Shown here: piece by piece, positions 3,778-41,195 of the stretch
Numbering within the stretch: the first letter of the stretch is position 1
How the letters are laid out: each line of letters begins with the position of its first letter
From: Escherichia phage vB_EcoS_SCS92
DNA: 44,240 bases
Direction: 5' to 3' (one strand)
Sequence record: ON548432.1
Made by a program: the position numbers and the translations under genes
The notes under the pieces: generated by a model
What the model was told of the DNA's origin: nothing
The model's input: only the letters and a program-made list of their open reading frames with translations
The model's database searches: none

Positions 3778-4028
3778 GTTTCCCCTTTCTCGATAAGTAA
3801 AGCCCCGCCTTAAAGCGGGGCGCTAGTCCTTATCATTTAAACATAGAAACGGCGTAATCTCAGTAAACCCGTTACTTTTTACACAAGCAATAGAGTATGG
3901 CCCTTCCGAACGCGTCAGCGTAACTACACTCAGGACTTACGTCCCGCTCCGTTACCTGCCCGCGCCGCGGTCGCTTGTTCATACTTCACAAGCTCAGGTG
4001 GAGCTTAGCACATTTTTAGTGAAAAGTC

Positions 4029-4044
4029 AACTATTCGAATAGTT
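4029..4044. repeat. perfect 16-bp palindrome AACTATTCGAATAGTT
   Basis: Read directly. Sits in a 375-bp ORF-free region and overlaps a TTGACT hexamer on the minus strand. Confidence 0.6.
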
Positions 4045-4096
4045 TATTCCAACATTTACAATTGAGTGGAATAACTGGAATACGTAAATAAATAGT

Positions 4097-4125
4097 TTGC
4101 ACACACCAATATAATAGGGTACTAT
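4097..4125 (+). promoter_or_regulatory. sigma70-like promoter (TTGCAC-N17-TACTAT class) with embedded AATAG-N4-CTATT palindrome
   Basis: TTGCAC at 4097-4102, 17-bp spacer, TACTAT at 4120-4125, about 28 bp upstream of a gene with an AGGAGGTG Shine-Dalgarno. Near-identical copies at 38905, 15547(-) and 16739(-). Confidence 0.5.
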
Positions 4126-4152
4126 TCATTTAACTTAAACAGGAGGTGAAAA

Positions 4153-4356
4153 ATGTATGCAATTTGCGAAGTAGTTCAAGAGTTCGATGAAGAGTTCGAC
4201 GGTGACTTGTGCCGGGTTAAAAAGGTTCTGCAGGTTTTCCCTGACGCAATGTCTGCTTACAAGGCATTAGATATATTTGAACCTGGAAGATACGGGGATT
4301 ATGACACTGTTCTGAGGGTTGTCCATGAGCAGGATTTAAACACAAGATTCCGTTGA
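4153..4356 (+). CDS. hypothetical acidic 67-aa protein (opposite-strand moron in the head gene block)
   Basis: Strong AGGAGGTG Shine-Dalgarno 7 bp before the ATG, own promoter and a downstream hairpin. No recognisable domain. Confidence 0.55.
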   Translation: MYAICEVVQEFDEEFDGDLCRVKKVLQVFPDAMSAYKALDIFEPGRYGDYDTVLRVVHEQDLNTRFR

Positions 4357-4847: not shown

Positions 4848-5890
4848 TATTCCCCTTTCAGATAATCAGCAACACGTTTATCGAGTTCCGCCATCTGCTT
4901 AAGCGTGAGCGGATTCCCGAAACCATCTACAGATATTACGCGAAACTCTTCCGGCGATATACCGCTGTTACGGAAAATCTTACCTCGCACCGGGCCGAGC
5001 GCCTGGTCCTGAAACCATGCTGGTTGTTGTTTCAGGAACTCGTAATATGTTGTGTCCGCGCTTACCTGAGTGCCGCCGTCAGCGCCCTTAGCCGCCCGTT
5101 TTGCGCCTTTATCGAGGAAGTCGAACTCTGAACTGATTACCGGAGCCGTGCACGACCGACAATTCGGATGGGCTGGGGGTGTCGGCCCTTTACCGATTTC
5201 CCACGTCATTCCGTCTCTGGCCCTGCAAATAGCGCTGGTACGGCTATCCAGCGTAGACACCCATTCATATTTCTCGATGATGTCGTCGTTCTGGCGGTAT
5301 GTCTCGTTGCGGGCTTCGTTGGATACGTGAGACAGCGCGGTGCGTATTACTGTAGCTGCGTTACGTTCTGAGATGTCAGCCAGCCCGCCCGCGCCTACGA
5401 CATTCTTAACAATCTGCCGTGTTGTCTGGCCTTGTACAAAGCCCATCTTAACGCCGGTTACAAGACGTGCTACTTCCGTTTCACCCCAGCCGTCCATCAG
5501 CTTAGTGAAATCAACGGGCTTGTCACTCAACGATAATGGCTGAAACTCGGCAGCAGCCCACACCTGTTCAGCGGTAGGTGTAACAAATTCCGCGTCTACG
5601 TTGGCGGTCAGTGTCTTTACGTTCCACTCAGCCTCGTACGCCGCCAGTTCCTTAAGGTCGTCTGTCAGCTTTGTCTGCCAGTCGCCCGTAATCCCTGTCA
5701 GTGCTTCTTCAAGGTCCCGTAACAGTTTATTCAGCCGCGCAGTGCTTCGCCCGTCGTCGCCGAATAACAGCACCTGCCGTTTGATTTCATCCCGCATCTC
5801 CTGAATGAACGGTGTGAGGTCTTTCACCTCACCGGATGCGGTGCGTTGCAGCCATATCTGATGGCTGATGAGGGATGTAAGTAAGCTCAT
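4847..5890 (-). CDS. head morphogenesis protein (Mu F / SPP1 gp7-like)
   Basis: 347 aa, directly downstream of the portal gene. Phage Mu F-like signature region (STLDSRTSAICRARDG). Confidence 0.7.
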   Translation of the reverse strand: MSLLTSLISHQIWLQRTASGEVKDLTPFIQEMRDEIKRQVLLFGDDGRSTARLNKLLRDLEEALTGITGDWQTKLTDDLKELAAYEAEWNVKTLTANVDAEFVTPTAEQVWAAAEFQPLSLSDKPVDFTKLMDGWGETEVARLVTGVKMGFVQGQTTRQIVKNVVGAGGLADISERNAATVIRTALSHVSNEARNETYRQNDDIIEKYEWVSTLDSRTSAICRARDGMTWEIGKGPTPPAHPNCRSCTAPVISSEFDFLDKGAKRAAKGADGGTQVSADTTYYEFLKQQPAWFQDQALGPVRGKIFRNSGISPEEFRVISVDGFGNPLTLKQMAELDKRVADYLKGE

Positions 5891-5924
5891 AGATCAACCC
5901 TGTGGCGCTAAAGTTAATAGCATA

Positions 5925-5949
5925 CTATAAGAAAGCCCCTTTCGGGGCT
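5925..5949 (-). terminator. hairpin (attenuator-like) between portal and head morphogenesis genes
   Basis: AGCCCC-tttc-GGGGCT stem; the minus-strand RNA continues with TTTCTTAT. Confidence 0.3.
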
Positions 5950-9317: not shown

Positions 9318-9341
9318 CAGAAAAGCCCTCCGTAGAGGGCT
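9318..9341 (-). terminator. rho-independent terminator ending the minus-strand early gene block
   Basis: AGCCCTC-cgta-GAGGGCT hairpin followed on the minus strand by TTTTCTGT. Confidence 0.5.
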
Positions 9342-9440
9342 TGTATCAGTTATATAGGCCGTGGCGTGGCGCTCTTTTACCGTCGTCGCAATGGTCGTTA
9401 GCTACGGCGATAGCCCTGGCGTTTGGTATGATTAGTAGTC

Positions 9441-9659
9441 TCATATATGTTCCAGTGATTCTCTCCAGTCTGTATCTTGGTTCTCTACACACCCGAGGCA
9501 TTGTACTTCTCCATCCTCGCTCGACCATACCCATTCAAGACCCTCGATAATGGGTTCGTACTCGAAGCCGTACACAGCCCCGTCTTCATCCGTGGCAACA
9601 TAGTTTATATTATCCCACACATGAAAATGTTTACCTTTATATTCTATAGTACGACTCAT
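9441..9659 (-). CDS. hypothetical acidic protein
   Basis: 72 aa; ATGA overlap with the upstream gene. Trp/acidic-rich, no recognised domain. Confidence 0.45.
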   Translation of the reverse strand: MSRTIEYKGKHFHVWDNINYVATDEDGAVYGFEYEPIIEGLEWVWSSEDGEVQCLGCVENQDTDWRESLEHI

Positions 9660-9892
9660 TCCCCGCTCTCCTCTTTAGCAATGCGTTGCTCTGTTTTAGT
9701 GATACCCCGGCGCGTGAATAACACCGGGCTAGTCTTAACGTGCGTCATCAGACGATTGTTATAAATTACGTGGCGCTCACAATCAACGTCTTTACTGTAC
9801 TTAGCAATCGTCATTTCGTTGATACCGGTTTGTCGGCATGTCTCCGCCATCGTACCAAATTCTTTAATCAGGTTAGGAATGCTGGTAATCAT
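9656..9892 (-). CDS. hypothetical protein, possible HTH
   Basis: Likely ATG at 9892 (MITSIPNLIKEF); the track begins at a GTG at 9916. AETCRQTGINEMTIAKY is HTH-like. Confidence 0.4.
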   Translation of the reverse strand: MITSIPNLIKEFGTMAETCRQTGINEMTIAKYSKDVDCERHVIYNNRLMTHVKTSPVLFTRRGITKTEQRIAKEESGE

Positions 9893-11392: not shown

Positions 11393-11421
11393 AATATAAT
11401 AGGGTCGTAGGTAATAGTCAA
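11393..11421 (-). promoter_or_regulatory. sigma70-like promoter (TTGACT-N17-TATATT) on the minus strand
   Basis: Minus-strand reading gives TTGACT, a 17-bp spacer and TATATT, just downstream of the terminator at 11443-11474. Confidence 0.4.
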
Positions 11422-11442
11422 CTAGTCATTGCAGAAAATAGA

Positions 11443-15515: not shown

Positions 15516-15546
15516 CCTCTGTCTCTCCTCTCGTTTGTGTAAATGA

Positions 15547-15575
15547 ATAGTAGCCTATTCTATATTAGTGTGCAA
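15547..15575 (-). promoter_or_regulatory. sigma70-like promoter (TTGCAC-N17-TACTAT class) with AATAG-N4-CTATT palindrome
   Basis: Minus-strand reading gives CTTGCAC, a 17-bp spacer and TACTAT, about 30 bp upstream of the 15515 ATG. Confidence 0.5.
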
Positions 15576-15654
15576 GTAAATTTTATTGGTGTTTGTATTG
15601 TTGCGTCTCCTGCAATAGTCGCTTCGATTGTTGCGTTTGGTGAAATAGAACAAA

Positions 15655-15689
15655 AATGAGAAAAATGATACGCTGCTGTGTAGCAGCGT
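15655..15689 (-). terminator. rho-independent terminator
   Basis: ACGCTGCT-gtgt-AGCAGCGT stem followed on the minus strand by ATCATTTTTCTCATTTTTG. Confidence 0.55.
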
Positions 15690-15722
15690 AAGTCACTCAG
15701 TAAAATCCCAAACTATTGAACA

Positions 15723-16704: not shown

Positions 16705-16738
16705 AACCACCACTCCTCTGTCTCGTTCCGATAAGTGA

Positions 16739-16767
16739 ATAGTATCCTATTATATTGGGGTGTGCAA
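16739..16767 (-). promoter_or_regulatory. sigma70-like promoter (TTGCAC-N17-TACTAT class) with AATAG-N4-CTATT palindrome
   Basis: Minus-strand reading CTTGCACaccccaatataataggaTACTAT, almost identical to the promoters at 4097 and 38905. Confidence 0.5.
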
Positions 16768-16836
16768 GAGGATAGTTACGTTGCCGTTGTGATTCTTCGG
16801 GGATGGTTGTGCCATTATTCTTATTACTTGGTAACT

Positions 16837-16860
16837 AAAGGGCAGGCCTTAAGCCTGCCC
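16837..16860. other. GC-rich hairpin GGGCAGGC-cttaa-GCCTGCCC in the divergent early intergenic region
   Basis: Read directly. Lies in a roughly 370-bp ORF-poor region that also has GCTTAAC repeats at about 17015-17050. Confidence 0.5.
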
Positions 16861-17138
16861 AATAATCGTTACATTTTTACGGTTGCGAATCTACGGCACT
16901 TTAAGAAAATCAGATACTTAAGAGATATGCTGTCGATGAGAATAGAGCTTGCCCAGGGCAACCGGAGATACTTAGGAAGGAAAGTTACAACAATTCTCGT
17001 GTTCAGTAAGCCTGCTGCTTAACCCTTTGCTTAACGCACGGGTTAAGCATTCTTACAAGGTGAACAGGAATCAAAGTAACTAAGATATAGAAGCACCTTA
17101 AACGAAGATTTTCTTAATGTCAATAGGTGTGATTATGT

Positions 17139-17167
17139 TTGATTTCCCATTATTCGCAATGTATACT
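17139..17167 (+). promoter_or_regulatory. sigma70-like promoter (TTGATT-N17-TATACT) for the plus-strand replication operon
   Basis: Hexamers with a 17-bp spacer about 30 bp upstream of the ATG at 17200. Confidence 0.45.
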
Positions 17168-17199
17168 TGGTTTCGTTAACTGATAATGAGGGCTTTGGA

Positions 17200-17370
17200 A
17201 TGACACAGAATGAAGTAGCTGAGCGTATCGGGGTTACCCGTCGTACGCTGAATAACTGGTTAAAGAGTGGGAAGTTCCCGGATTGTTGTATTCGCATTAT
17301 GGGCCGCAGGCAGCCTGGTACGTTTGACCCGGAGAAAGTGGAAGCGTGGATTAAGGAGAACGTGAAATGA
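17200..17370 (+). CDS. HTH DNA-binding protein (AlpA/excisionase-like family)
   Basis: MTQNEVAERIGVTRRTLNNWLKSGKFP is a typical HTH. GAGGG Shine-Dalgarno before ATG 17200; the track begins at a TTG at 17167. Confidence 0.6.
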   Translation: MTQNEVAERIGVTRRTLNNWLKSGKFPDCCIRIMGRRQPGTFDPEKVEAWIKENVK

Positions 17371-17617: not shown

Positions 17618-19900
17618 GTGAACGCCGAGGCCAAATTACTTGCTGAAGGAATATACAACATGTCCGATGTAATTTTATCCTACTCGTGGTCACGCCGCAA
17701 CGCGCGGGCGGGGAAAAAGGATATAAATGTCAGAACCGCACACACGGCAACACTGGACGACCTGAAAGAGTTAATCCAGCCGCTCGATGCCGTTCGTGAC
17801 GGGATTAACCCCAAGACTGCGCCCGGTTATATCACGGCCGCGTGCGATTCTACACACAGCACCGTAAAAGACCCGGAAACCGGTGGCTTTAAACAAGCGC
17901 GTAAAGGCTTCTTCTATCGCTGTGACGCGTCTGTGAGCAAATCGTCGCTGGCGTATCTGGACTTCGACAGTGCAACACCGGAAGAGTACCAGGAAGCGGT
18001 GCGCCTGGTTAATCGCAGCCGCCGGGCGATGTGTCTCTACACCACGGCATCACATACCGATGAGGTCGCCCGCTTTCGCGTCGTCATGCCGCTGGCCCGC
18101 CCAGTTGAGGGTGGTGATATCATCCGTGTTCGTCATGGGTTGCTGGAGCACTTCTTCAAAGGCATGGGTGCGGACCGCAGCGGGTTCACTCTGTCGCAGC
18201 CGATGTACCTGCCGCCGGTCGGCGCTACCGTTATCTGGTCGCGCCGCAACGACCTGATCGACCCGAACGAGTTACTGGAAGGCATCCCAGCCGTTGACGT
18301 TAGCAGCGCATCGGATTACCAGATACCGGAAGAACTGCGCACCGCGTTTACAGACGCGTTTGAAGCACTGGCGTTTGAGTACGGCGGCGTCATGACGCCG
18401 CGCGGCCTTAAGATGCCAGCCACACCGGAACATGCCGAAAACTACAGCGACCCGACACCGCGCCCGGACGACTTCCTGCTGTGCTTCCCGCGCGAGGGGT
18501 ATGAAGCGCCAAACGTAACCATGATTCACGACACAGACATTACGGCGACAGAAGGCCTGTCACCGAAAGAGGTGTGGAAGTACGCGTGCGATGCGACCGG
18601 GCTGCCGTTCAGTGAAGTCGCAGAGGCCATCGGTTGGGGGGCGCGTGAATCTGTCTCATGCAGCCTCGACGACCTGGAAGACGACGAGGACTCAGAGGAG
18701 GACGAGTTACCGGAGCCGGTAAAGGCTGATTTCGTCGTTGAGGGGTACATGCCGTCGGATTGTATCTGGGGTATCGTCGGAGAATCGGGCACGTACAAAT
18801 CATTCTATACGCTGGGGATGATGTACCTGAGCGCCGCCGGATACCGGTTTGCAGGGGCTGACACCCAGCGTTGTCACCATTTCTATATCGACGGCGAGGG
18901 TGGGGCAGCCACACGTACACGTATTGATGCGCTCGCGGCTAAATACGGCGAGGAAGGTAAAGATTATGTACATGTCATCGATATGGGCGAAGTCGGCAAA
19001 CTTAAAAGCCTGATTAAGTTAATGCGCGAAACTGCTGGCGACGAGCCAATTGGCATGGTTGCGTTCGACACCCTTAACCAGACCCTGGCACTGACGATTG
19101 ATAAGTTCGACGAGAACAGTTCATCAACAGCAATCGGCATGGGTAAAGTTATCGCCATTCTGAAAGAAGTACGCGATGCAACTAAAGCCGCTGTCGGTGT
19201 CGTTCACCATACTCCGAAGGGCGGAAAGAAAGCCCGCGGCAGTGGGGCGCTGTATGCGGGTGTTGATGTGGAACTGACAATCGAACGTGCAACCGACCGT
19301 CAGATAAACGTATATCACTCGAAATTCAAGCACGGGCCTCAGCAGAAGACGGTTGGCATGGTGCTGGAGTCGGTACAGTTCCGTGAAGCGCCGCCGCCTA
19401 AAGAATACCGAGCGGTTGAGTTCCTGGGTAGCACAGAGGAATACGGCACAATCGTAAACCTGGACCTGCCTGAACCACACAAGGCGCTTGTGTTGATGCC
19501 GTGGGGTTTCGAGCCGTTCAAAACTGACGAGGAGAAAGAGCGGGAAGAAGGGTTGACGAAAGAAGGTAAGAAAAAAGTAAAGGAAGAAGTTAAACGCGGC
19601 AGGGATGAAGTAAGGAAGGAGTCAATACTTTCGGCACTGGAAGACCTGCAACAGTCAGATGACACAGGTCGCGGTTTTACTCAGCAGCAGATAGTGGCTC
19701 GTTCCGGTGACTTCTCTGTGACTAACACCCATCTTGATAAAATGTTGAAAGATGGAGAACTAATGCTTGGTTGCGATGCTAACGGCGAAGTAGTACCGAG
19801 AACATATCGTATACCCGAAAGAATAGGGGATAGATTAAGGCCGAAGACACTATACGAACCAAATGAGATGCTGGTGGTGACAGAGGAGGATTTGGAATAG
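17618..19900 (+). CDS. primase-helicase (RecA-fold ATPase with N-terminal primase-like domain)
   Basis: Walker A GIVGESGTYKS and Walker B-like VAFDTLNQ in the C-terminal half, large N-terminal domain, C-terminal TEEDLE. Likely ATG at 17660; the track starts at a GTG. Confidence 0.6.
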   Translation: MNAEAKLLAEGIYNMSDVILSYSWSRRNARAGKKDINVRTAHTATLDDLKELIQPLDAVRDGINPKTAPGYITAACDSTHSTVKDPETGGFKQARKGFFYRCDASVSKSSLAYLDFDSATPEEYQEAVRLVNRSRRAMCLYTTASHTDEVARFRVVMPLARPVEGGDIIRVRHGLLEHFFKGMGADRSGFTLSQPMYLPPVGATVIWSRRNDLIDPNELLEGIPAVDVSSASDYQIPEELRTAFTDAFEALAFEYGGVMTPRGLKMPATPEHAENYSDPTPRPDDFLLCFPREGYEAPNVTMIHDTDITATEGLSPKEVWKYACDATGLPFSEVAEAIGWGARESVSCSLDDLEDDEDSEEDELPEPVKADFVVEGYMPSDCIWGIVGESGTYKSFYTLGMMYLSAAGYRFAGADTQRCHHFYIDGEGGAATRTRIDALAAKYGEEGKDYVHVIDMGEVGKLKSLIKLMRETAGDEPIGMVAFDTLNQTLALTIDKFDENSSSTAIGMGKVIAILKEVRDATKAAVGVVHHTPKGGKKARGSGALYAGVDVELTIERATDRQINVYHSKFKHGPQQKTVGMVLESVQFREAPPPKEYRAVEFLGSTEEYGTIVNLDLPEPHKALVLMPWGFEPFKTDEEKEREEGLTKEGKKKVKEEVKRGRDEVRKESILSALEDLQQSDDTGRGFTQQQIVARSGDFSVTNTHLDKMLKDGELMLGCDANGEVVPRTYRIPERIGDRLRPKTLYEPNEMLVVTEEDLE

Positions 19901-19926
19901 GTAAAAAGAAAGGGGCTTTAAGCCCC
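19901..19926 (-). terminator. terminator hairpin between the convergent primase and HTH genes
   Basis: GGGGCT-tta-AGCCCC stem; the minus-strand RNA is followed by TTCTTTTTAC. The stem overlaps the HTH gene stop. Confidence 0.45.
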
Positions 19927-20133
19927 TTCACCTAACGCCAACCACTTGGCGTCTACTTCAAGCACTTCCGCCAGTTTAAACAGCGTCGCCGGGCGGACAT
20001 CCTGAGTTACCCCAAGTGCAAGCTGGTTAATCGCGCCCTGGGAGACACCGGCCAGGACAGCCAGACGGCGCTGGGAGATGCCGAGTTCTTTACGGCGTTG
20101 TTCTACACGAATGCCTAGTTCAGATGGTTGCAT
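19918..20133 (-). CDS. XRE-family (Cro/CI-type) HTH transcriptional regulator
   Basis: 71 aa. QRRKELGISQRRLAVLAGVSQGAINQLALG is a classic HTH_XRE motif. AAGGAG Shine-Dalgarno. Lone minus-strand gene with a divergent promoter region. Confidence 0.8.
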   Translation of the reverse strand: MQPSELGIRVEQRRKELGISQRRLAVLAGVSQGAINQLALGVTQDVRPATLFKLAEVLEVDAKWLALGEGA

Positions 20134-20164
20134 GTCAGCTACTCCTTAGTTAGTTGATATGTGA

Positions 20165-20193
20165 ATAGTACCATATTAATTATTTTAGAAAAG
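20165..20193 (-). promoter_or_regulatory. extended -10 promoter (TGnTACTAT) for the HTH regulator gene
   Basis: Minus-strand reading TGGTACTAT about 25 bp upstream of the AAGGAG Shine-Dalgarno; weak -35. Confidence 0.4.
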
Positions 20194-20197
20194 CCCA

Positions 20198-20226
20198 TTG
20201 ACATGTGAATAGTTCGCTATTATAGT
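20198..20226 (+). promoter_or_regulatory. near-consensus sigma70 promoter TTGACA-N17-TATAGT with AATAG-N4-CTATT palindrome in the spacer
   Basis: TTGACA at 20198-20203, TATAGT at 20221-20226, 32 bp upstream of the ATG at 20258. A weaker tandem copy (TTGATA ... TAATTA) lies at 20154-20182. Confidence 0.6.
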
Positions 20227-20257
20227 TAACCCATACCAAACGAGAGGTGAGAAACAA

Positions 20258-20758
20258 ATGTTAGAACAATTCTTAAAATTACTGGAACGTTTCGTAGTTG
20301 CACATGAACTGATTGCTGCGAACAGTGCGAAACAGTCAGCACAAGTTGCAGCGCCGTTAGAAGTAGAGACGGTAGTGTATACCAAAGAAGCGGTAGCTGA
20401 GTGCGAAAAAGAAGCAACAAAAGAAATCCCTGTTGAAGGTGAAGACATCGTTGACGCTAAACCAGCAGAAGAAGAGAAGCCGAAACGCAAGCCGCGTAAA
20501 GCTAAAGTAGAGGAGCCGACTCCAGAACCAGAAGAAGAGAAAGAAGAGGTCGATTACCAGTCTCTTCGTGACCAGATTCAGGCTATCGACGATGCAATTA
20601 ACGAAGGTCCGAGCGATGCCGCGTGCGACGATTCCGATGAACTGCTGGAGGAGTTCACCGGTAAGAAAATGAAGATTGCCGCGATTAAAGACGAAGACCT
20701 GGCTGAATACCTGAAACGCCTGACGGCGATTAAGAACAAGTATTTCGAAGAAGAATAA
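20258..20758 (+). CDS. highly acidic hypothetical protein (first gene of an early operon)
   Basis: 166 aa, Glu/Asp-rich with a short Lys-rich patch. GAGAGGTGAG Shine-Dalgarno. Followed by the hairpin GCGGCC-tccg-GGCCGC. Confidence 0.5.
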   Translation: MLEQFLKLLERFVVAHELIAANSAKQSAQVAAPLEVETVVYTKEAVAECEKEATKEIPVEGEDIVDAKPAEEEKPKRKPRKAKVEEPTPEPEEEKEEVDYQSLRDQIQAIDDAINEGPSDAACDDSDELLEEFTGKKMKIAAIKDEDLAEYLKRLTAIKNKYFEEE

Positions 20759-20801
20759 TTTATCTGGCGGCCTCCGGGCCGCTTTAACAGAGGGTCGTAA
20801 T

Positions 20802-22312: not shown

Positions 22313-22512
22313 TTCAAGTAAATGAAATGCCCACAGATAAAGATTTTGTGATGATATGGCGCTGGGGCGGTTATATCCATTCGGAATCGTTTACGTTCCT
22401 GAACGGCACGATGGTGCGATACAACCATGTGGAGGATGAATTCGAACCCGTTGATATGAATGATTTCGAGAACATAGTCCGTATTGCGAAATTTTATTTG
22501 ACACCTGAATAG
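22309..22512 (+). CDS. hypothetical protein
   Basis: ATG at 22309 with an AGGAGG Shine-Dalgarno, overlapping the nuclease stop. Confidence 0.4.
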   Translation: MIQVNEMPTDKDFVMIWRWGGYIHSESFTFLNGTMVRYNHVEDEFEPVDMNDFENIVRIAKFYLTPE

Positions 22513-22526
22513 TTAGCTATTATAGT
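22498..22526 (+). promoter_or_regulatory. sigma70 promoter TTGACA-N17-TATAGT with AATAG-N4-CTATT palindrome
   Basis: TTGACAcctgaatagttagctatTATAGT, overlapping the stop of the upstream gene, 60 bp before the ATG at 22586. Confidence 0.55.
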
Positions 22527-25808: not shown

Positions 25809-26089
25809 CTAAAGAGGGACGCATACAGAAATACGCAAAAGAGCGATTCGAGGCCCTTGGTGGCCTCGTTCGTAAACTTTCCTACGAAGGACGTTCCGGC
25901 GCCCCTGACCTGCTGGTAATTCTCCCCGGCGGCATCGTCTGGTTCGTCGAGATAAAGAAAGACGAAAGCACGAAGCCGGATCCCCACCAGTTACGGGAGC
26001 ACGAGCGGATGCGTAAGCGTGGTGCTAATGTTTTTGTCGTTGGTTCGTTTAAACAGGTTGACGACCTAATAGCGAACTATTATAGTTAG
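25805..26089 (+). CDS. VRR-NUC domain nuclease
   Basis: 94 aa. GAPDLLVILPGGIVWFVEIKKDES fits the PD-(D/E)xK pattern of VRR-NUC. Confidence 0.7.
   Translation: MTKEGRIQKYAKERFEALGGLVRKLSYEGRSGAPDLLVILPGGIVWFVEIKKDESTKPDPHQLREHERMRKRGANVFVVGSFKQVDDLIANYYS
26058..26086 (+). promoter_or_regulatory. sigma70 promoter TTGACG-N17-TATAGT with AATAG-N4-CTATT palindrome
   Basis: Overlaps the 3' end of the VRR-NUC gene, 34 bp before the ATG at 26120. Confidence 0.5.
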
Positions 26090-38904: not shown

Positions 38905-38933
38905 TTGCACACCCCAATATAATAGGGTACTAT
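38905..38933 (+). promoter_or_regulatory. sigma70-like promoter (TTGCAC-N17-TACTAT class) with AATAG-N4-CTATT palindrome, driving the opposite-strand island
   Basis: CTTGCACaccccaatataatagggTACTAT, 28 bp upstream of the ATG at 38962. Confidence 0.55.
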
Positions 38934-38961
38934 TCACCAGTAACTTACTGAGGGTATAATT

Positions 38962-39288
38962 ATGCGTAAATTAGTATTAGCTCTGGGGTTTATGTCTTTT
39001 GCTACTTTTGGAGCCCCGTGCGAACAGGTATTTAGTGAATCCGTTCTTATGACTTCTGGTGTGCTTGATAAAGCCGACCTTACTATTGTAAAGGCATTTA
39101 AAGACTCTACAGTTCGCGAGTGTGAGGCTGCCGTAGTGGTTGGTAAATCGGGCCTGCCTCCGCAAGCCGTAACATACTCGGTAATACGTTCTGTAGAGAA
39201 AAACGGAGACGCGTTTTACAGCCTACTGACAGCCACCCGCCTGCAAATGGTGATGACCGGGTGGGCGATAGGCGCGGAAAGTAAATAG
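38962..39288 (+). CDS. small secreted/periplasmic protein with signal peptide (candidate superinfection-exclusion factor)
   Basis: 108 aa. N-terminus MRKLVLALGFMSFATFGAP is a signal peptide. Opposite strand to the tail genes, with its own early-type promoter. Confidence 0.5.
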   Translation: MRKLVLALGFMSFATFGAPCEQVFSESVLMTSGVLDKADLTIVKAFKDSTVRECEAAVVVGKSGLPPQAVTYSVIRSVEKNGDAFYSLLTATRLQMVMTGWAIGAESK

Positions 39289-39353
39289 TCGCCTTTATTT
39301 AAAGGAATGCACTGTGGTTAAATAGGACAAATCCTAAACACGAGGAAGTAAGC

Positions 39354-40484
39354 ATGGCCCGGAAGAAAATAACCGACGAACAGTTGCAGGAAGAATTGAA
39401 CGCCGGGATGAAGAATATCGATATCGCCCGTAAATACGGAATCTCAGACCGCGTTATTCGTATCCGTAAAGCGAAGCTGGCTAAGAAAGGTGTAGGCCAC
39501 GGGCGTGACGTTAGCCACCTTGTCCCAGACGGCTACAAGATTAAAGGGACGTCGTCCCTGGTGGACGAGTTCGGCAACACTAAGTTGCAATGGGTTAAGA
39601 CCGACGCTGATGCCGAACGTCAGGTTGAATTGATGAAAGCCGTAATAGAGGGCATGAAGTCAGAGATTACGCCCGTTGCGCCTGTTAAACCGGCACGAGC
39701 CAAACGTGACGATAAACTACTCAATCTTTACACGGTATCTGATTTCCATCTCGGTATGCTGGCATGGGCCGATGAGAGCGGCGACGACTGGGACATGAAG
39801 ATTGCAGAAGACCTGTTCTCTCGGTGGTTCGACGCGGCGTTTCAGAAAGCACCGGATGCAGGAACAGGAGTTATTAACCTGCTTGGCGACCTTGCACACT
39901 TCGATAGTCTGGACGCCGTTACCCCGGCAAGTGGTCATGTTCTCGATGCGGACACGCGCTACCAGAAACTGGTTCGCTACATGATTCGTATGGTCCGCCG
40001 TGTTGTCGATATGGCCCTTGTTAAGCATAAAAATGTTCGCTTGCTTATCGTACAAGGGAACCACGACGAAAGCGGAATGATTTGGTTAGCTGAGATGTTC
40101 AGTACGCTGTACGACAATGAGCCTCGTGTGTTCGTCGATACGTCGCCGGATGTTTACAAGATGGTGCAACACGGCAAAACGACGCTGTTCTTTACACACG
40201 GGCATAAATGCCGGTTTGAGGTGGTCGAACCCATTATGATAGCTAAGTTCAGAAAAGCATTTGGCGAAAGCGAGTACAGTTACGCACATGTCGGTCATCT
40301 CCACCATCAAAAGATTGTAGAAAGTAGGAATATGGTAGTGGAACAACATCGCACTCTCGCGGCGAAAGATGCATATGCTTCCCGCGGTGGGTGGATGTCT
40401 AAGAGGTCCGCTAATGTCATAACCTATAGTTCAGAGTTCGGGGAAGTAGGTAGGCTTTCGATCTCACCGGAGATGCTAAGATGA
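39354..40484 (+). CDS. HTH-fused metallophosphoesterase (calcineurin-like)
   Basis: 376 aa. N-terminal HTH-like region (NIDIARKYGISDRVIRIRKAKL) and C-terminal metallophosphoesterase motifs (DFHLG, LLGDLAHFD, VQGNHDE, FTHGH, HVGHLHH). Confidence 0.65.
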   Translation: MARKKITDEQLQEELNAGMKNIDIARKYGISDRVIRIRKAKLAKKGVGHGRDVSHLVPDGYKIKGTSSLVDEFGNTKLQWVKTDADAERQVELMKAVIEGMKSEITPVAPVKPARAKRDDKLLNLYTVSDFHLGMLAWADESGDDWDMKIAEDLFSRWFDAAFQKAPDAGTGVINLLGDLAHFDSLDAVTPASGHVLDADTRYQKLVRYMIRMVRRVVDMALVKHKNVRLLIVQGNHDESGMIWLAEMFSTLYDNEPRVFVDTSPDVYKMVQHGKTTLFFTHGHKCRFEVVEPIMIAKFRKAFGESEYSYAHVGHLHHQKIVESRNMVVEQHRTLAAKDAYASRGGWMSKRSANVITYSSEFGEVGRLSISPEMLR

Positions 40485-40951
40485 AGTACCTTGATGTTTC
40501 AAAACAATTTAAATACTGCCCTGATACTGGGCAGGTTACCAGGATATCTACTGGTGCTGAGGTTGGTACGGTTGGTGTAAGAGGCTATCTGTGCTGCGGT
40601 ATGGGTGGCAAAACAGTGTATGTCCACCGCATAGCATGGTGTCTTTATAATAAATGTGACTTAGACAGGAAAACTCAAATAGACCACATAAACCATAACA
40701 GGCTAGACAATAGAATAGAAAATCTACGCGCCACCGACAATACAGGGAACAGTAAAAATAAAACTATGAGAAAGATAAATAAATCCGGGGCTACAGGTGT
40801 AAGTTTCCACAAAGCCGCGGGTAAGTGGCGCGCGTTTATAAAAGTTAACTACAAACAAGTGCATTTAGGGCTTTACGACGATTTTGATGTAGCGGTTGCC
40901 GCGCGTAAAGCCGCCGAGAGTAAATACGGTTTCCATGAAAACCATGAGTAG
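40481..40951 (+). CDS. HNH homing endonuclease with AP2-type DNA-binding domain (second copy)
   Basis: IDHINHNRLDNRIENLR HNH motif and AP2-like C-terminus (SGATGVSFHKAAGKWRAFIKVNYKQVHLGLYDD...KYGFHENHE). Paralogous to the gene at 14275-14748. Confidence 0.8.
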   Translation: MKYLDVSKQFKYCPDTGQVTRISTGAEVGTVGVRGYLCCGMGGKTVYVHRIAWCLYNKCDLDRKTQIDHINHNRLDNRIENLRATDNTGNSKNKTMRKINKSGATGVSFHKAAGKWRAFIKVNYKQVHLGLYDDFDVAVAARKAAESKYGFHENHE

Positions 40952-40964
40952 GGGAGATTGATTT

Positions 40965-41195
40965 ATGACTTCAAAATACAACCGCACAATGACAAATACT
41001 CACGGCAGCACTATGACAGTAGACGTTTATGATGTGCTCCGCGCCTTCGATATACGCGACCCGGCGCTACAGCACGCATTGAAGAAGCTATTGTGCATGG
41101 GCTTGCGCGGACACAAGGACACCGGAACCGACTTAGCGGAAGCAATTGAAAGTCTGGAGAAGTTACGGGAATACCGAAGCAATATTGATGAGTAA
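40965..41195 (+). CDS. hypothetical conserved phage protein
   Basis: 76 aa. VDVYDVLRAFDIRDPALQHALKKLLCMGLRGHKD resembles a recurrent small phage protein family seen from memory. Confidence 0.45.
   Translation: MTSKYNRTMTNTHGSTMTVDVYDVLRAFDIRDPALQHALKKLLCMGLRGHKDTGTDLAEAIESLEKLREYRSNIDE

Follow-up and report, generated by a model that had tools for sequence, protein, structure and literature searches.

Introduction

Several described regulators come close, in one respect or another, to the system considered here, which consists of a short helix-turn-helix (HTH) regulator gene (19918-20133, minus strand), the divergent promoter region beside it (20134-20257) and a 14-bp dyad, AATAG-N4-CTATT, all in Escherichia phage vB_EcoS_SCS92 (ON548432.1). 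The 44,240-bp stretch that was analysed, called the window below, is a complete Kagunavirus genome (Guernseyvirinae), that of a siphovirus. The closest described protein is Cro of phage 434 (Cro of lambda and of P22 can be named beside it), with a single, five-helix HTH domain in its 71 aa; its gene is divergent from a strong promoter, and it serves to reduce early transcription in lytic growth. The 434 operators are 14-bp dyads, conserved in the outer arms and free at the centre, and they overlap promoters. Another arrangement is that of phage P1 C1 and of mycobacteriophage L5 gp71 with its "stoperators", where one small repressor acts at many dispersed, asymmetric sites in the maintenance of lysogeny; such dispersal of an operator freezes its sequence, so that the sites evolve in concert. 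In the virulent phage phi29, which uses the host RNA polymerase, the small DNA-binding protein p4 shuts off early transcription at divergent promoters. Finally, the C-proteins of restriction-modification systems (C.AhdI, C.BclI) are small XRE dimers that set timing through graded-affinity dyads in their own promoter.

The window system shares with 434 the size and the single-domain, five-helix fold of the protein, the layout of the dyads, the divergence of the gene from a strong promoter and, as we propose, the role. It differs in that a CI partner, PRM, a tripartite OR/OL, an integrase and a prophage state are all missing from the window phage, in that its operators lie at at least eight promoters genome-wide and not in two operator regions, and in the half-site, which is AATAG here and ACAA in 434. 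With P1 C1 and L5 gp71 it has in common that many copies of one operator are spread over the genome, but the window phage is virulent, the protein is of the Cro type, and the symmetric sites are strictly confined to promoters; the searches described below found neither lysogeny genes nor prophages for such a regulon to maintain. The C-proteins, which are among the top structural matches of the window protein, serve one operon and act first as activators, whereas in the window many promoters carry the site.

The motif itself has been published. In the Kagunavirus fBC-Eco01 an identical DNA motif was found by PHIRE in seven copies (consensus tgAATAGTa-ccTATTat-T) and attributed to promoters of a phage RNA polymerase, which the phage does not encode (PMC9825357). 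Seven PHIRE promoters are also reported for phage Golestan (PMC7203180), and in these two papers neither the dyad symmetry, nor the sigma70 embedding, nor a link to an HTH gene is noted (PMC9825357, PMC7203180). Our literature search found no work that links the motif to the regulator gene, notes its symmetry or tests its function, and no functional study of the regulator.

Here we describe an analysis from which we conclude, with moderate confidence, that the 71-aa XRE protein acts as a Cro-type global repressor of early and middle promoters, weakly regulating its own synthesis, in a strictly lytic phage. The dyad probably marks a phage-wide repression circuit and not a local lysogeny switch. 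Whole-genome scripts covered the window and the phages NTEC3, SE2 (Jerseyvirus), phiEap-2 and TS6; Ent1, PhiSTP1 (Cornellvirus) and 37 IMG/VR loci were examined by pattern and alignment tools only.

The dyad in promoters across the genome

The original prediction placed two palindromes containing TGTGAATAGT in the divergent region, as operators overlapping transcription in both directions. The string is indeed present exactly twice (20160 and 20204), inside a 25-nt direct repeat (20154-20178 and 20198-20222, 84% identical); the true symmetric element, however, is the dyad AATAG-N4-CTATT, and it is not confined to this region but stands in promoters across the 44-kb genome. The window contains seven perfect copies (at 4113, 15546, 16738, 20208, 22508, 26068 and 38921), where shuffled sequences give a mean of 0.04 strand-counted matches (about 0.02 sites). 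With at most one mismatch allowed there are 12 dyads against 0.94 expected, a number reached in none of 100 shuffles. All seven perfect dyads, as well as the imperfect dyad of the regulator's own promoter (O_A, see below), are located inside sigma70-type promoters with 17-bp spacers. The predicted 5' untranslated regions (5'UTRs) are 21-28 nt long, in one case 53 nt, and each is followed by a ribosome-binding site and the ATG of a non-structural gene. Outside the divergent region, transcription is predicted to start near 4132, 15540, 16732, 22533, 26093 and 38940. Besides the seven perfect dyads, at least three of those with one mismatch are also in promoter context, and the three best consensus promoters of the plus strand all bear the dyad.

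The perfect-dyad promoters, which head replication, recombination and small early genes, form two classes. In the TTGACA class the arrangement is TTGAC(A/G)-N4-dyad, with TATAGT beginning at the last T of the dyad. Its members, all on the plus strand, are the promoter of the divergent region (20198-20226), TTGACA-N17-TATAGT at 22498-22526 (dyad 22508-22521), which precedes the genes of a Gp2.5-like single-stranded DNA-binding protein and of DNA polymerase, and TTGACG-N17-TATAGT at 26058-26086 (dyad 26068-26081), which precedes gene 26120, a methyltransferase gene and a helicase gene; an exonuclease gene is also headed by this class. In the TACTAT class the arrangement is TTGCAC-N10-dyad, and TACTAT is made of the last two bases of N4 and the following CTAT. 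Four TTGCAC-N17-TACTAT promoters belong to it. On the plus strand, that at 4097-4126 (dyad 4113-4126) lies before the small gene 4153-4356 in a divergent region adjoining the head operon, and that at 38905-38934 (dyad 38921-38934) lies before 38962-41195 (phosphoesterase, HNH) in a divergent region adjoining the tail operon. On the minus strand, that at 16738-16767 (dyad 16738-16751) heads a leftward block of small genes from 16704 and keeps its -35, -10, ribosome-binding site and spacing in 13 relatives, and that at 15546-15575 (dyad 15546-15559) precedes the leftward gene 15515. The regulator's own promoter has the -10 register of this class, with TG replacing the -35.

The direction of the TACTAT-class promoters deserves a comment. 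The same sites can be taken for -35-less promoters pointing toward the structural operons, and this assignment was replaced by TTGCAC-N17-TACTAT on the opposite strand because a conserved GGGGTGTGCAAG block is the -35 TTGCAC in reverse complement and because the distance to the gene start is constant. The adopted direction explains both the conserved GTGCAAG block and the constant 5'UTR of 21-28 nt (about 27-34 nt from the dyad to the gene start).

It is very improbable that the motif is a signal intrinsic to the promoter, that is, either a promoter of a phage RNA polymerase, as published PHIRE annotations have it, or a loading site for a Q/AlpA-type antiterminator. The element does lie between -35 and -10, which is likewise the location of the Q and AlpA binding elements (PMC9371919). 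However, no phage-encoded RNA polymerase was found, every open reading frame (ORF) of at least 700 aa being assigned otherwise (primase-helicase, DNA polymerase, tailspike, tail protein, tape measure), each copy of the motif is embedded in a canonical sigma70 promoter (-35, N17, -10), and the register of the dyad relative to the -10 differs between the two promoter classes. A monomer reads the AlpA element, which is asymmetric, 6 bp long and dependent on a downstream -10-like, sigma-dependent pause element (PMC9371919). The window element is instead a symmetric dyad, and no -10-like pause element is conserved downstream of it.

The register of the dyad also bears on the sign of regulation. Counted from the -35 it is 4 or 10 nt in the window and 7 nt in SE2, and such variability fits steric occlusion better than a precise contact with RNA polymerase or activation. 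We therefore consider it unlikely that the binder of the dyad is a dual regulator or mainly an activator, which at the bidirectional sites 4113 and 38921, beside the head and tail operons, would be a repressor of the early promoter and an activator of the divergent late promoter, in the manner of p4 of phi29 or of lambda CI at OR2. There is a leftward TTGGGG-N16-(TGc)TAGAAT at 38921, for which the dyad centre would fall near -44.5, typical of a class II activator; at the orthologous site of SE2 a single dyad is common to two back-to-back promoters (TTGACG-N7-dyad-N7-ATGCAA), one of which points into the tail operon; and the late operons have no strong consensus promoters. On the other hand, the other sites of the class have no conserved counterpart of the leftward promoter at 38921, and the TTGACA-type dyad promoters are so near to consensus that they need no activator. 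The p4 protein also has another fold, works with p6, bends DNA and activates A3, and activation of this kind finds no support in the window.

The regulator and the divergent promoter region

The regulator gene (19918-20133, minus strand, start codon 20131-20133) encodes a single-domain XRE/HTH_3 protein of 71 aa that resembles 434 Cro. Pfam HTH_3 (PF01381) matches it with 47.2 bits (cutoff 23), and among PDB sequences its top match is 434 Cro, itself 71 aa long (E 2e-6; residues 6-68 of 71 aligned); the Gln at the start of the recognition helix is kept. The AlphaFold2 (AF2) model (pLDDT 80) has five helices (5-17, 21-28, 32-39, 48-57 and 62-66), and Foldseek with this model returned the N-terminal domain of SinR, 434 Cro, the DNA-binding domains of the 434 and P22 repressors and C-proteins at TM of 0.7-0.8; in the structural alignment the identity to 434 Cro is 40-42%. 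Only HTH domains were matched, and neither a C-terminal oligomerisation domain nor an S24 peptidase was found in the protein; since it has no second domain, it is of the Cro type and not of the CI type. Existing annotations label the gene repressor, Cro or DicA. In the Kagunavirus K1B4 an RNA-seq study lists an HTH gene, '008', which may be the counterpart of the window regulator, among only four early-peaking genes (PMC12645636).

Between the convergent helicase-primase and regulator genes there is a GC-rich hairpin (19909-19929; inverted repeat I1, also picked by the minus-strand terminator scan), which reads GAAGGGGCTTAAAGCCCCTTT on the minus strand and is followed by a T-run. This hairpin is the terminator of a monocistronic regulator transcript. 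As it ends that transcript, the regulator is a lone unit opposed to the flow of the replication operon. The divergent gene (20258-20758, plus strand) encodes an acidic protein of 166 aa (PHROG 3127, function unknown), which is not a repressor: no DNA-binding domain was found in it in Pfam, PHROGs or NCBIfam.

The 124 bp between the two genes are a genuine divergent promoter region beside a regulator gene, at the place where the original prediction had put it. The elements named for each direction are present: on the minus strand the ribosome-binding site AAGGAG of the regulator (20143-20148), near-invariant with small variations in 26 aligned relatives, and the extended -10 TGgTACTAT (20165-20173), with a predicted start near 20158; on the plus strand the strong promoter of gene 20258, TTGACA (20198-20203)-N17-TATAGT (20221-20226), which has 11 of the 12 consensus bases, a predicted start near 20233 and a 25-nt 5'UTR, and after which come GAGAGGTG and the ATG at 20258. 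The -35 of the regulator promoter is poor (CTTTTC, 20188-20193); TACTAT is invariant in Kagunavirus and Jerseyvirus, and Jerseyvirus adds TTGCGT-N17-TACTAT. An alternative regulator promoter, TTCACA-N16-TAAAAT, is not conserved in Jerseyvirus, so that TGgTACTAT is preferred. The weak tandem plus-strand promoter that had been proposed (TTGATA-N18-AATTAT, 9/12) did not hold up: 13 such sites occur in 8 kb against 8.3 +/- 2.8 in shuffles, which is chance level, and the sequence is more simply understood as the flank of the O_A module.

Only two dyads are found in the region, one per promoter, with their centres 44 bp apart. O_A (AATAGTACCATATT, 20164-20177) is imperfect, with 9 of 10 arm positions, and overlaps the regulator's own -10. 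O_B (AATAGTTCGCTATT, 20208-20221) is perfect and lies in the spacer of the strong promoter, its final T being the first base of the -10. A further palindrome, ATTGACATGTGAAT (inverted repeat I4), was rejected as an operator because its centre is not conserved and carries substitutions and indels in relatives.

The 33 bp between O_A and the strong -35 (20170-20202) match, with 100% identity, a CRISPR spacer of E. coli 2017.09.02CC (NZ_AP025214.2), in a type I-E array adjoining cas2e; this is the sole match among 5,426 complete E. coli genomes. In the direction of transcription of the array the protospacer has an ATG protospacer-adjacent motif, the G of which is the first base of the spacer.

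The layout had been compared with a Cro/CI-type switch. The regulator is Cro-like, and this half of the comparison stands; a divergent CI-type partner, a tripartite operator, and an integrase or prophage, by which a bistable CI/Cro switch would be recognised, were all looked for at this locus and in this phage and not found. No integrase or lysogeny gene is annotated in the phage NTEC3 (NC_073318.1), whose gene map is directly usable for the window because the two genomes are collinear, of equal length (both 44,240 bp) and without indels (1,461 substitutions, 96.7% identity). None of the 5,426 complete E. coli genomes has a prophage copy, the longest match being the 33-bp spacer. The phage is strictly lytic; the original prediction, too, had noted no integrase or lysogeny genes.

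Conservation and lineage-specific versions of the dyad

Megablast with 19700-20800 matched 411 phage records, with Escherichia Kagunavirus phages at the top, and the search for homologous proteins yielded close relatives only, on contigs no longer than about 45 kb. Wherever the 37 IMG/VR Kagunavirus loci cover the O_B site, its dyad is present. The other dyads are at orthologous positions and are perfect in most of the Kagunavirus loci covering them. In about 20 position-aligned relatives the arms of O_B are invariant, while N4 is CGAA, CTAG, CTAA, TGAA or CAAA; elsewhere the variation of N4 affects its first two bases in the TACTAT class and several positions in the TTGACA class. O_A is near-invariant in the Kagunavirus loci, with one change in N4 (L038).

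Outside Kagunavirus the 5-4-5 geometry of the dyad is kept at orthologous promoters, and its sequence is specific to the lineage. Jerseyvirus (SE2) has AATAG-N4-CTATT, as Kagunavirus does, and AATCG variants in addition; phiEap-2 has AATAG-N4-GTATT; TS6 and the Cornellvirus PhiSTP1 have ATTAG-N4-GTAWT, in 5 copies each against 0.06-0.12 expected, and no dyad of the Kagunavirus type with up to one mismatch was found in these two phages. In all four lineages the XRE gene keeps its syntenic position; the identity of its product to that of the window is 49% in Jerseyvirus, 41% in TS6 and 38% in phiEap-2. In TS6 the regulator promoter carries a one-mismatch dyad of the TS6 type over its -10, in parallel to O_A.

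Two observations concern the pace of change of the protein. The regulator has diverged more between Kagunavirus and Jerseyvirus than any other protein encoded nearby (its identity is 49%, that of adjacent genes 64-89% and that of the major capsid protein 92%), and between the same two lineages the dyad is unchanged despite this divergence. Nothing can be learned from the distant XRE homologue L039, which comes from an unrelated phage rich in GC.

Judged from its family and its gene context, the XRE protein is still the best candidate binder of the dyad. The family binds such dyads as dimers, and the closest solved relative reads 14-bp operators; in addition, the gene is flanked by two dyads, and its own promoter tracks the dyad of the lineage. 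Several points weigh against giving it this role. The recognition helices differ between Kagunavirus and Jerseyvirus (QGAINQ and QSLITH, in proteins of 49% identity), yet these lineages share the dyad, and the helices of Jerseyvirus and TS6 are similar (QSLITH and QSAISH), but their dyads differ; as helix and dyad similarities disagree across the three lineages, the covariation of protein and operator is not clean. The TS6 and phiEap-2 patterns were defined post hoc, and PhiSTP1, which confirms that of TS6, is closely related to TS6. It is from gene function that temporal classes are assigned to the downstream genes. Finally, a NinH-like protein (9656-9892, minus strand) is encoded in all four lineages with 64-70% identity.

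This last point belongs to an alternative that we find doubtful, namely that the dyad is an operator of another phage protein, either the NinH/Fis-like one or an excisionase-family HTH_17 protein (17200-17370), the XRE protein having a local or some other role. The putative HTH of the NinH-like protein differs in TS6, a lineage with a different dyad, and a scan of about 30 small non-structural proteins gave a possible DNA-binding domain in this protein only. Its match to lambda NinH is nevertheless below the Pfam cutoff (23.4 against 29.8 bits), and the intergenic regions flanking its gene, which lies just upstream of the terminase genes, contain no dyad. The HTH_17 protein is 87.5% identical between Kagunavirus and Jerseyvirus, which have the same dyad, whereas the XRE protein is only 49% identical. 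However, no HTH_17 homologue was detected in TS6 and phiEap-2, both of which have 14-bp dyads at orthologous promoters, and since it is absent where the dyads persist, it was rejected as a universal binder. Excisionase-type proteins, moreover, usually read direct repeats, and this also counts against it. The XRE gene is also the only one with two flanking dyads, of which one lies in the gene's own promoter, and this holds in two lineages whose dyads differ.

That a host transcription factor binds the dyad and is exploited by the phage is extremely improbable. TGTGA resembles a CRP half-site, but the right half is absent, and readings of the element as a CRP or ArgR site were rejected for missing half-sites. 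Jerseyvirus and the TS6/Cornellvirus group both infect Salmonella and have different dyads, which makes a phage-encoded factor more likely.

A possible course of regulation

If the XRE protein is the binder, the following course of events may be envisaged. At the beginning of infection the dyad promoters would be free and strong, and the regulator would accumulate from its own monocistronic unit, in which a modest extended -10 promoter and a strong ribosome-binding site precede the gene and a terminator hairpin follows it. A dimer would bind the 14-bp AATAG-N4-CTATT. The perfect dyads sit between -35 and -10 and overlap the -10 in seven promoters of the host sigma70 type, so that a bound dimer would be expected to occlude RNA polymerase, and early and middle transcription would go down as the regulator builds up. 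Autorepression should set in only at a higher concentration because O_A is imperfect; occupation of O_A would then limit further synthesis. The suggestion of autoregulation and/or a role in timing, made before the genome-wide copies were known, agrees both with the imperfect dyad that covers the -10 of the regulator itself and with the occurrence of perfect dyads in replication-gene promoters. What is observed is the anatomy of the sequence, the enrichment, promoter context and conservation of the dyad and the family of the protein, whereas binding and dimerisation, as well as the sign and the timing of regulation, are inferred.

The last sites to be occupied would be one-mismatch dyads over the -35 of two candidate late promoters of the minus strand. 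The first, a candidate late or packaging promoter, is TTGACT-N17-TATATT (11393-11426) with its -35 inside AATAGTCAACTAGT, and the same arrangement recurs in SE2. The second, a candidate head-operon promoter, is TTGACT-N17-(TGc)TAAGCT (4002-4035) with its -35 inside AAAAGTCAACTATT; SE2 and phiEap-2 have variant dyads at the counterpart position.

A silencing role could also be imagined. Every recognisable promoter of the phage has a dyad, perfect in early and middle promoters and imperfect in the regulator's own and in the candidate late ones, and for this reason the Cro-like protein might act as a genome-wide silencer, perhaps giving this phage without integrase a reversible dormant or carrier state, and perhaps also an immunity-like block against superinfecting relatives with the same dyad, the lineage dyads then defining immunity groups. 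We regard this extension of the repressor role as rather improbable.

Further features of the genome

The plus strand of the window carries the replication genes between 16.8 and 28.6 kb, and the minus strand carries mostly small early, lysis, packaging and structural genes. A search of the window in Rfam gave no matches.

A perfect palindrome of 16 bp, AACTATTCGAATAGTT (4029-4044), lies upstream of the head operon and has the half-sites of the dyad in everted order. It is followed, within 4029-4095, by the inverted repeat TTATTCC...GGAATAA. The motifs TTCCAGTTATTCC and GAATAA-N-TTATTC are found at the corresponding place in SE2 and phiEap-2, with four copies in phiEap-2, and 4029-4095 may be a control region of a late promoter. 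Another one-mismatch dyad, AATAGCATACTATA (5916-5929), comes after a terminator hairpin between the portal and head-morphogenesis genes; its minus-strand sequence is TGcTATTAA, which may be an extended -10 ahead of the gene that starts at 5890.

On the -35 side of the two leftward dyad promoters the segments 16752-17199 and 15560-15722 are largely non-coding and long for a compact genome. The former has GC-rich hairpins at 16840-16860 and 17019-17050 and only one small annotated ORF (16807-17022). In some Kagunavirus relatives (L005 at 9663-9676, L010 at 9337-9350, L018 at 9750-9763) there is an extra perfect dyad in the context GGTGTAACAGGyCAATAGkTTACTATTT..., which has no counterpart among the seven perfect dyads of the window.

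The substitutions between NTEC3 and the window are mostly at third codon positions and patchy, some 2-kb bins having none and 22-24 kb having 242. Five of them fall in 20134-20257, none within a promoter hexamer or a dyad arm. The absence of any indel at 96.7% identity is odd.

Implications

Few phages are proposed for therapy and biocontrol as often as the Guernseyvirinae (Kagunavirus, Jerseyvirus), whose transcription programme is essentially uncharacterised. One of them, CM001, has been used as a chassis for synthetic biology (PMC11990801). If the proposed role of the XRE protein is true, one 71-aa protein and a 14-bp dyad would explain the order of expression in these phages with neither a phage RNA polymerase nor a phage sigma factor, and the published annotation of the motif as a phage RNA polymerase promoter would be corrected. 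It would also explain why a gene of a lytic phage that bears a label such as repressor, Cro or DicA is no marker of lysogeny. The strong repressible promoters, together with the matching repressor, could be of use in engineering, and the lineage-specific dyads would provide a natural case of the concerted evolution of dispersed operators.

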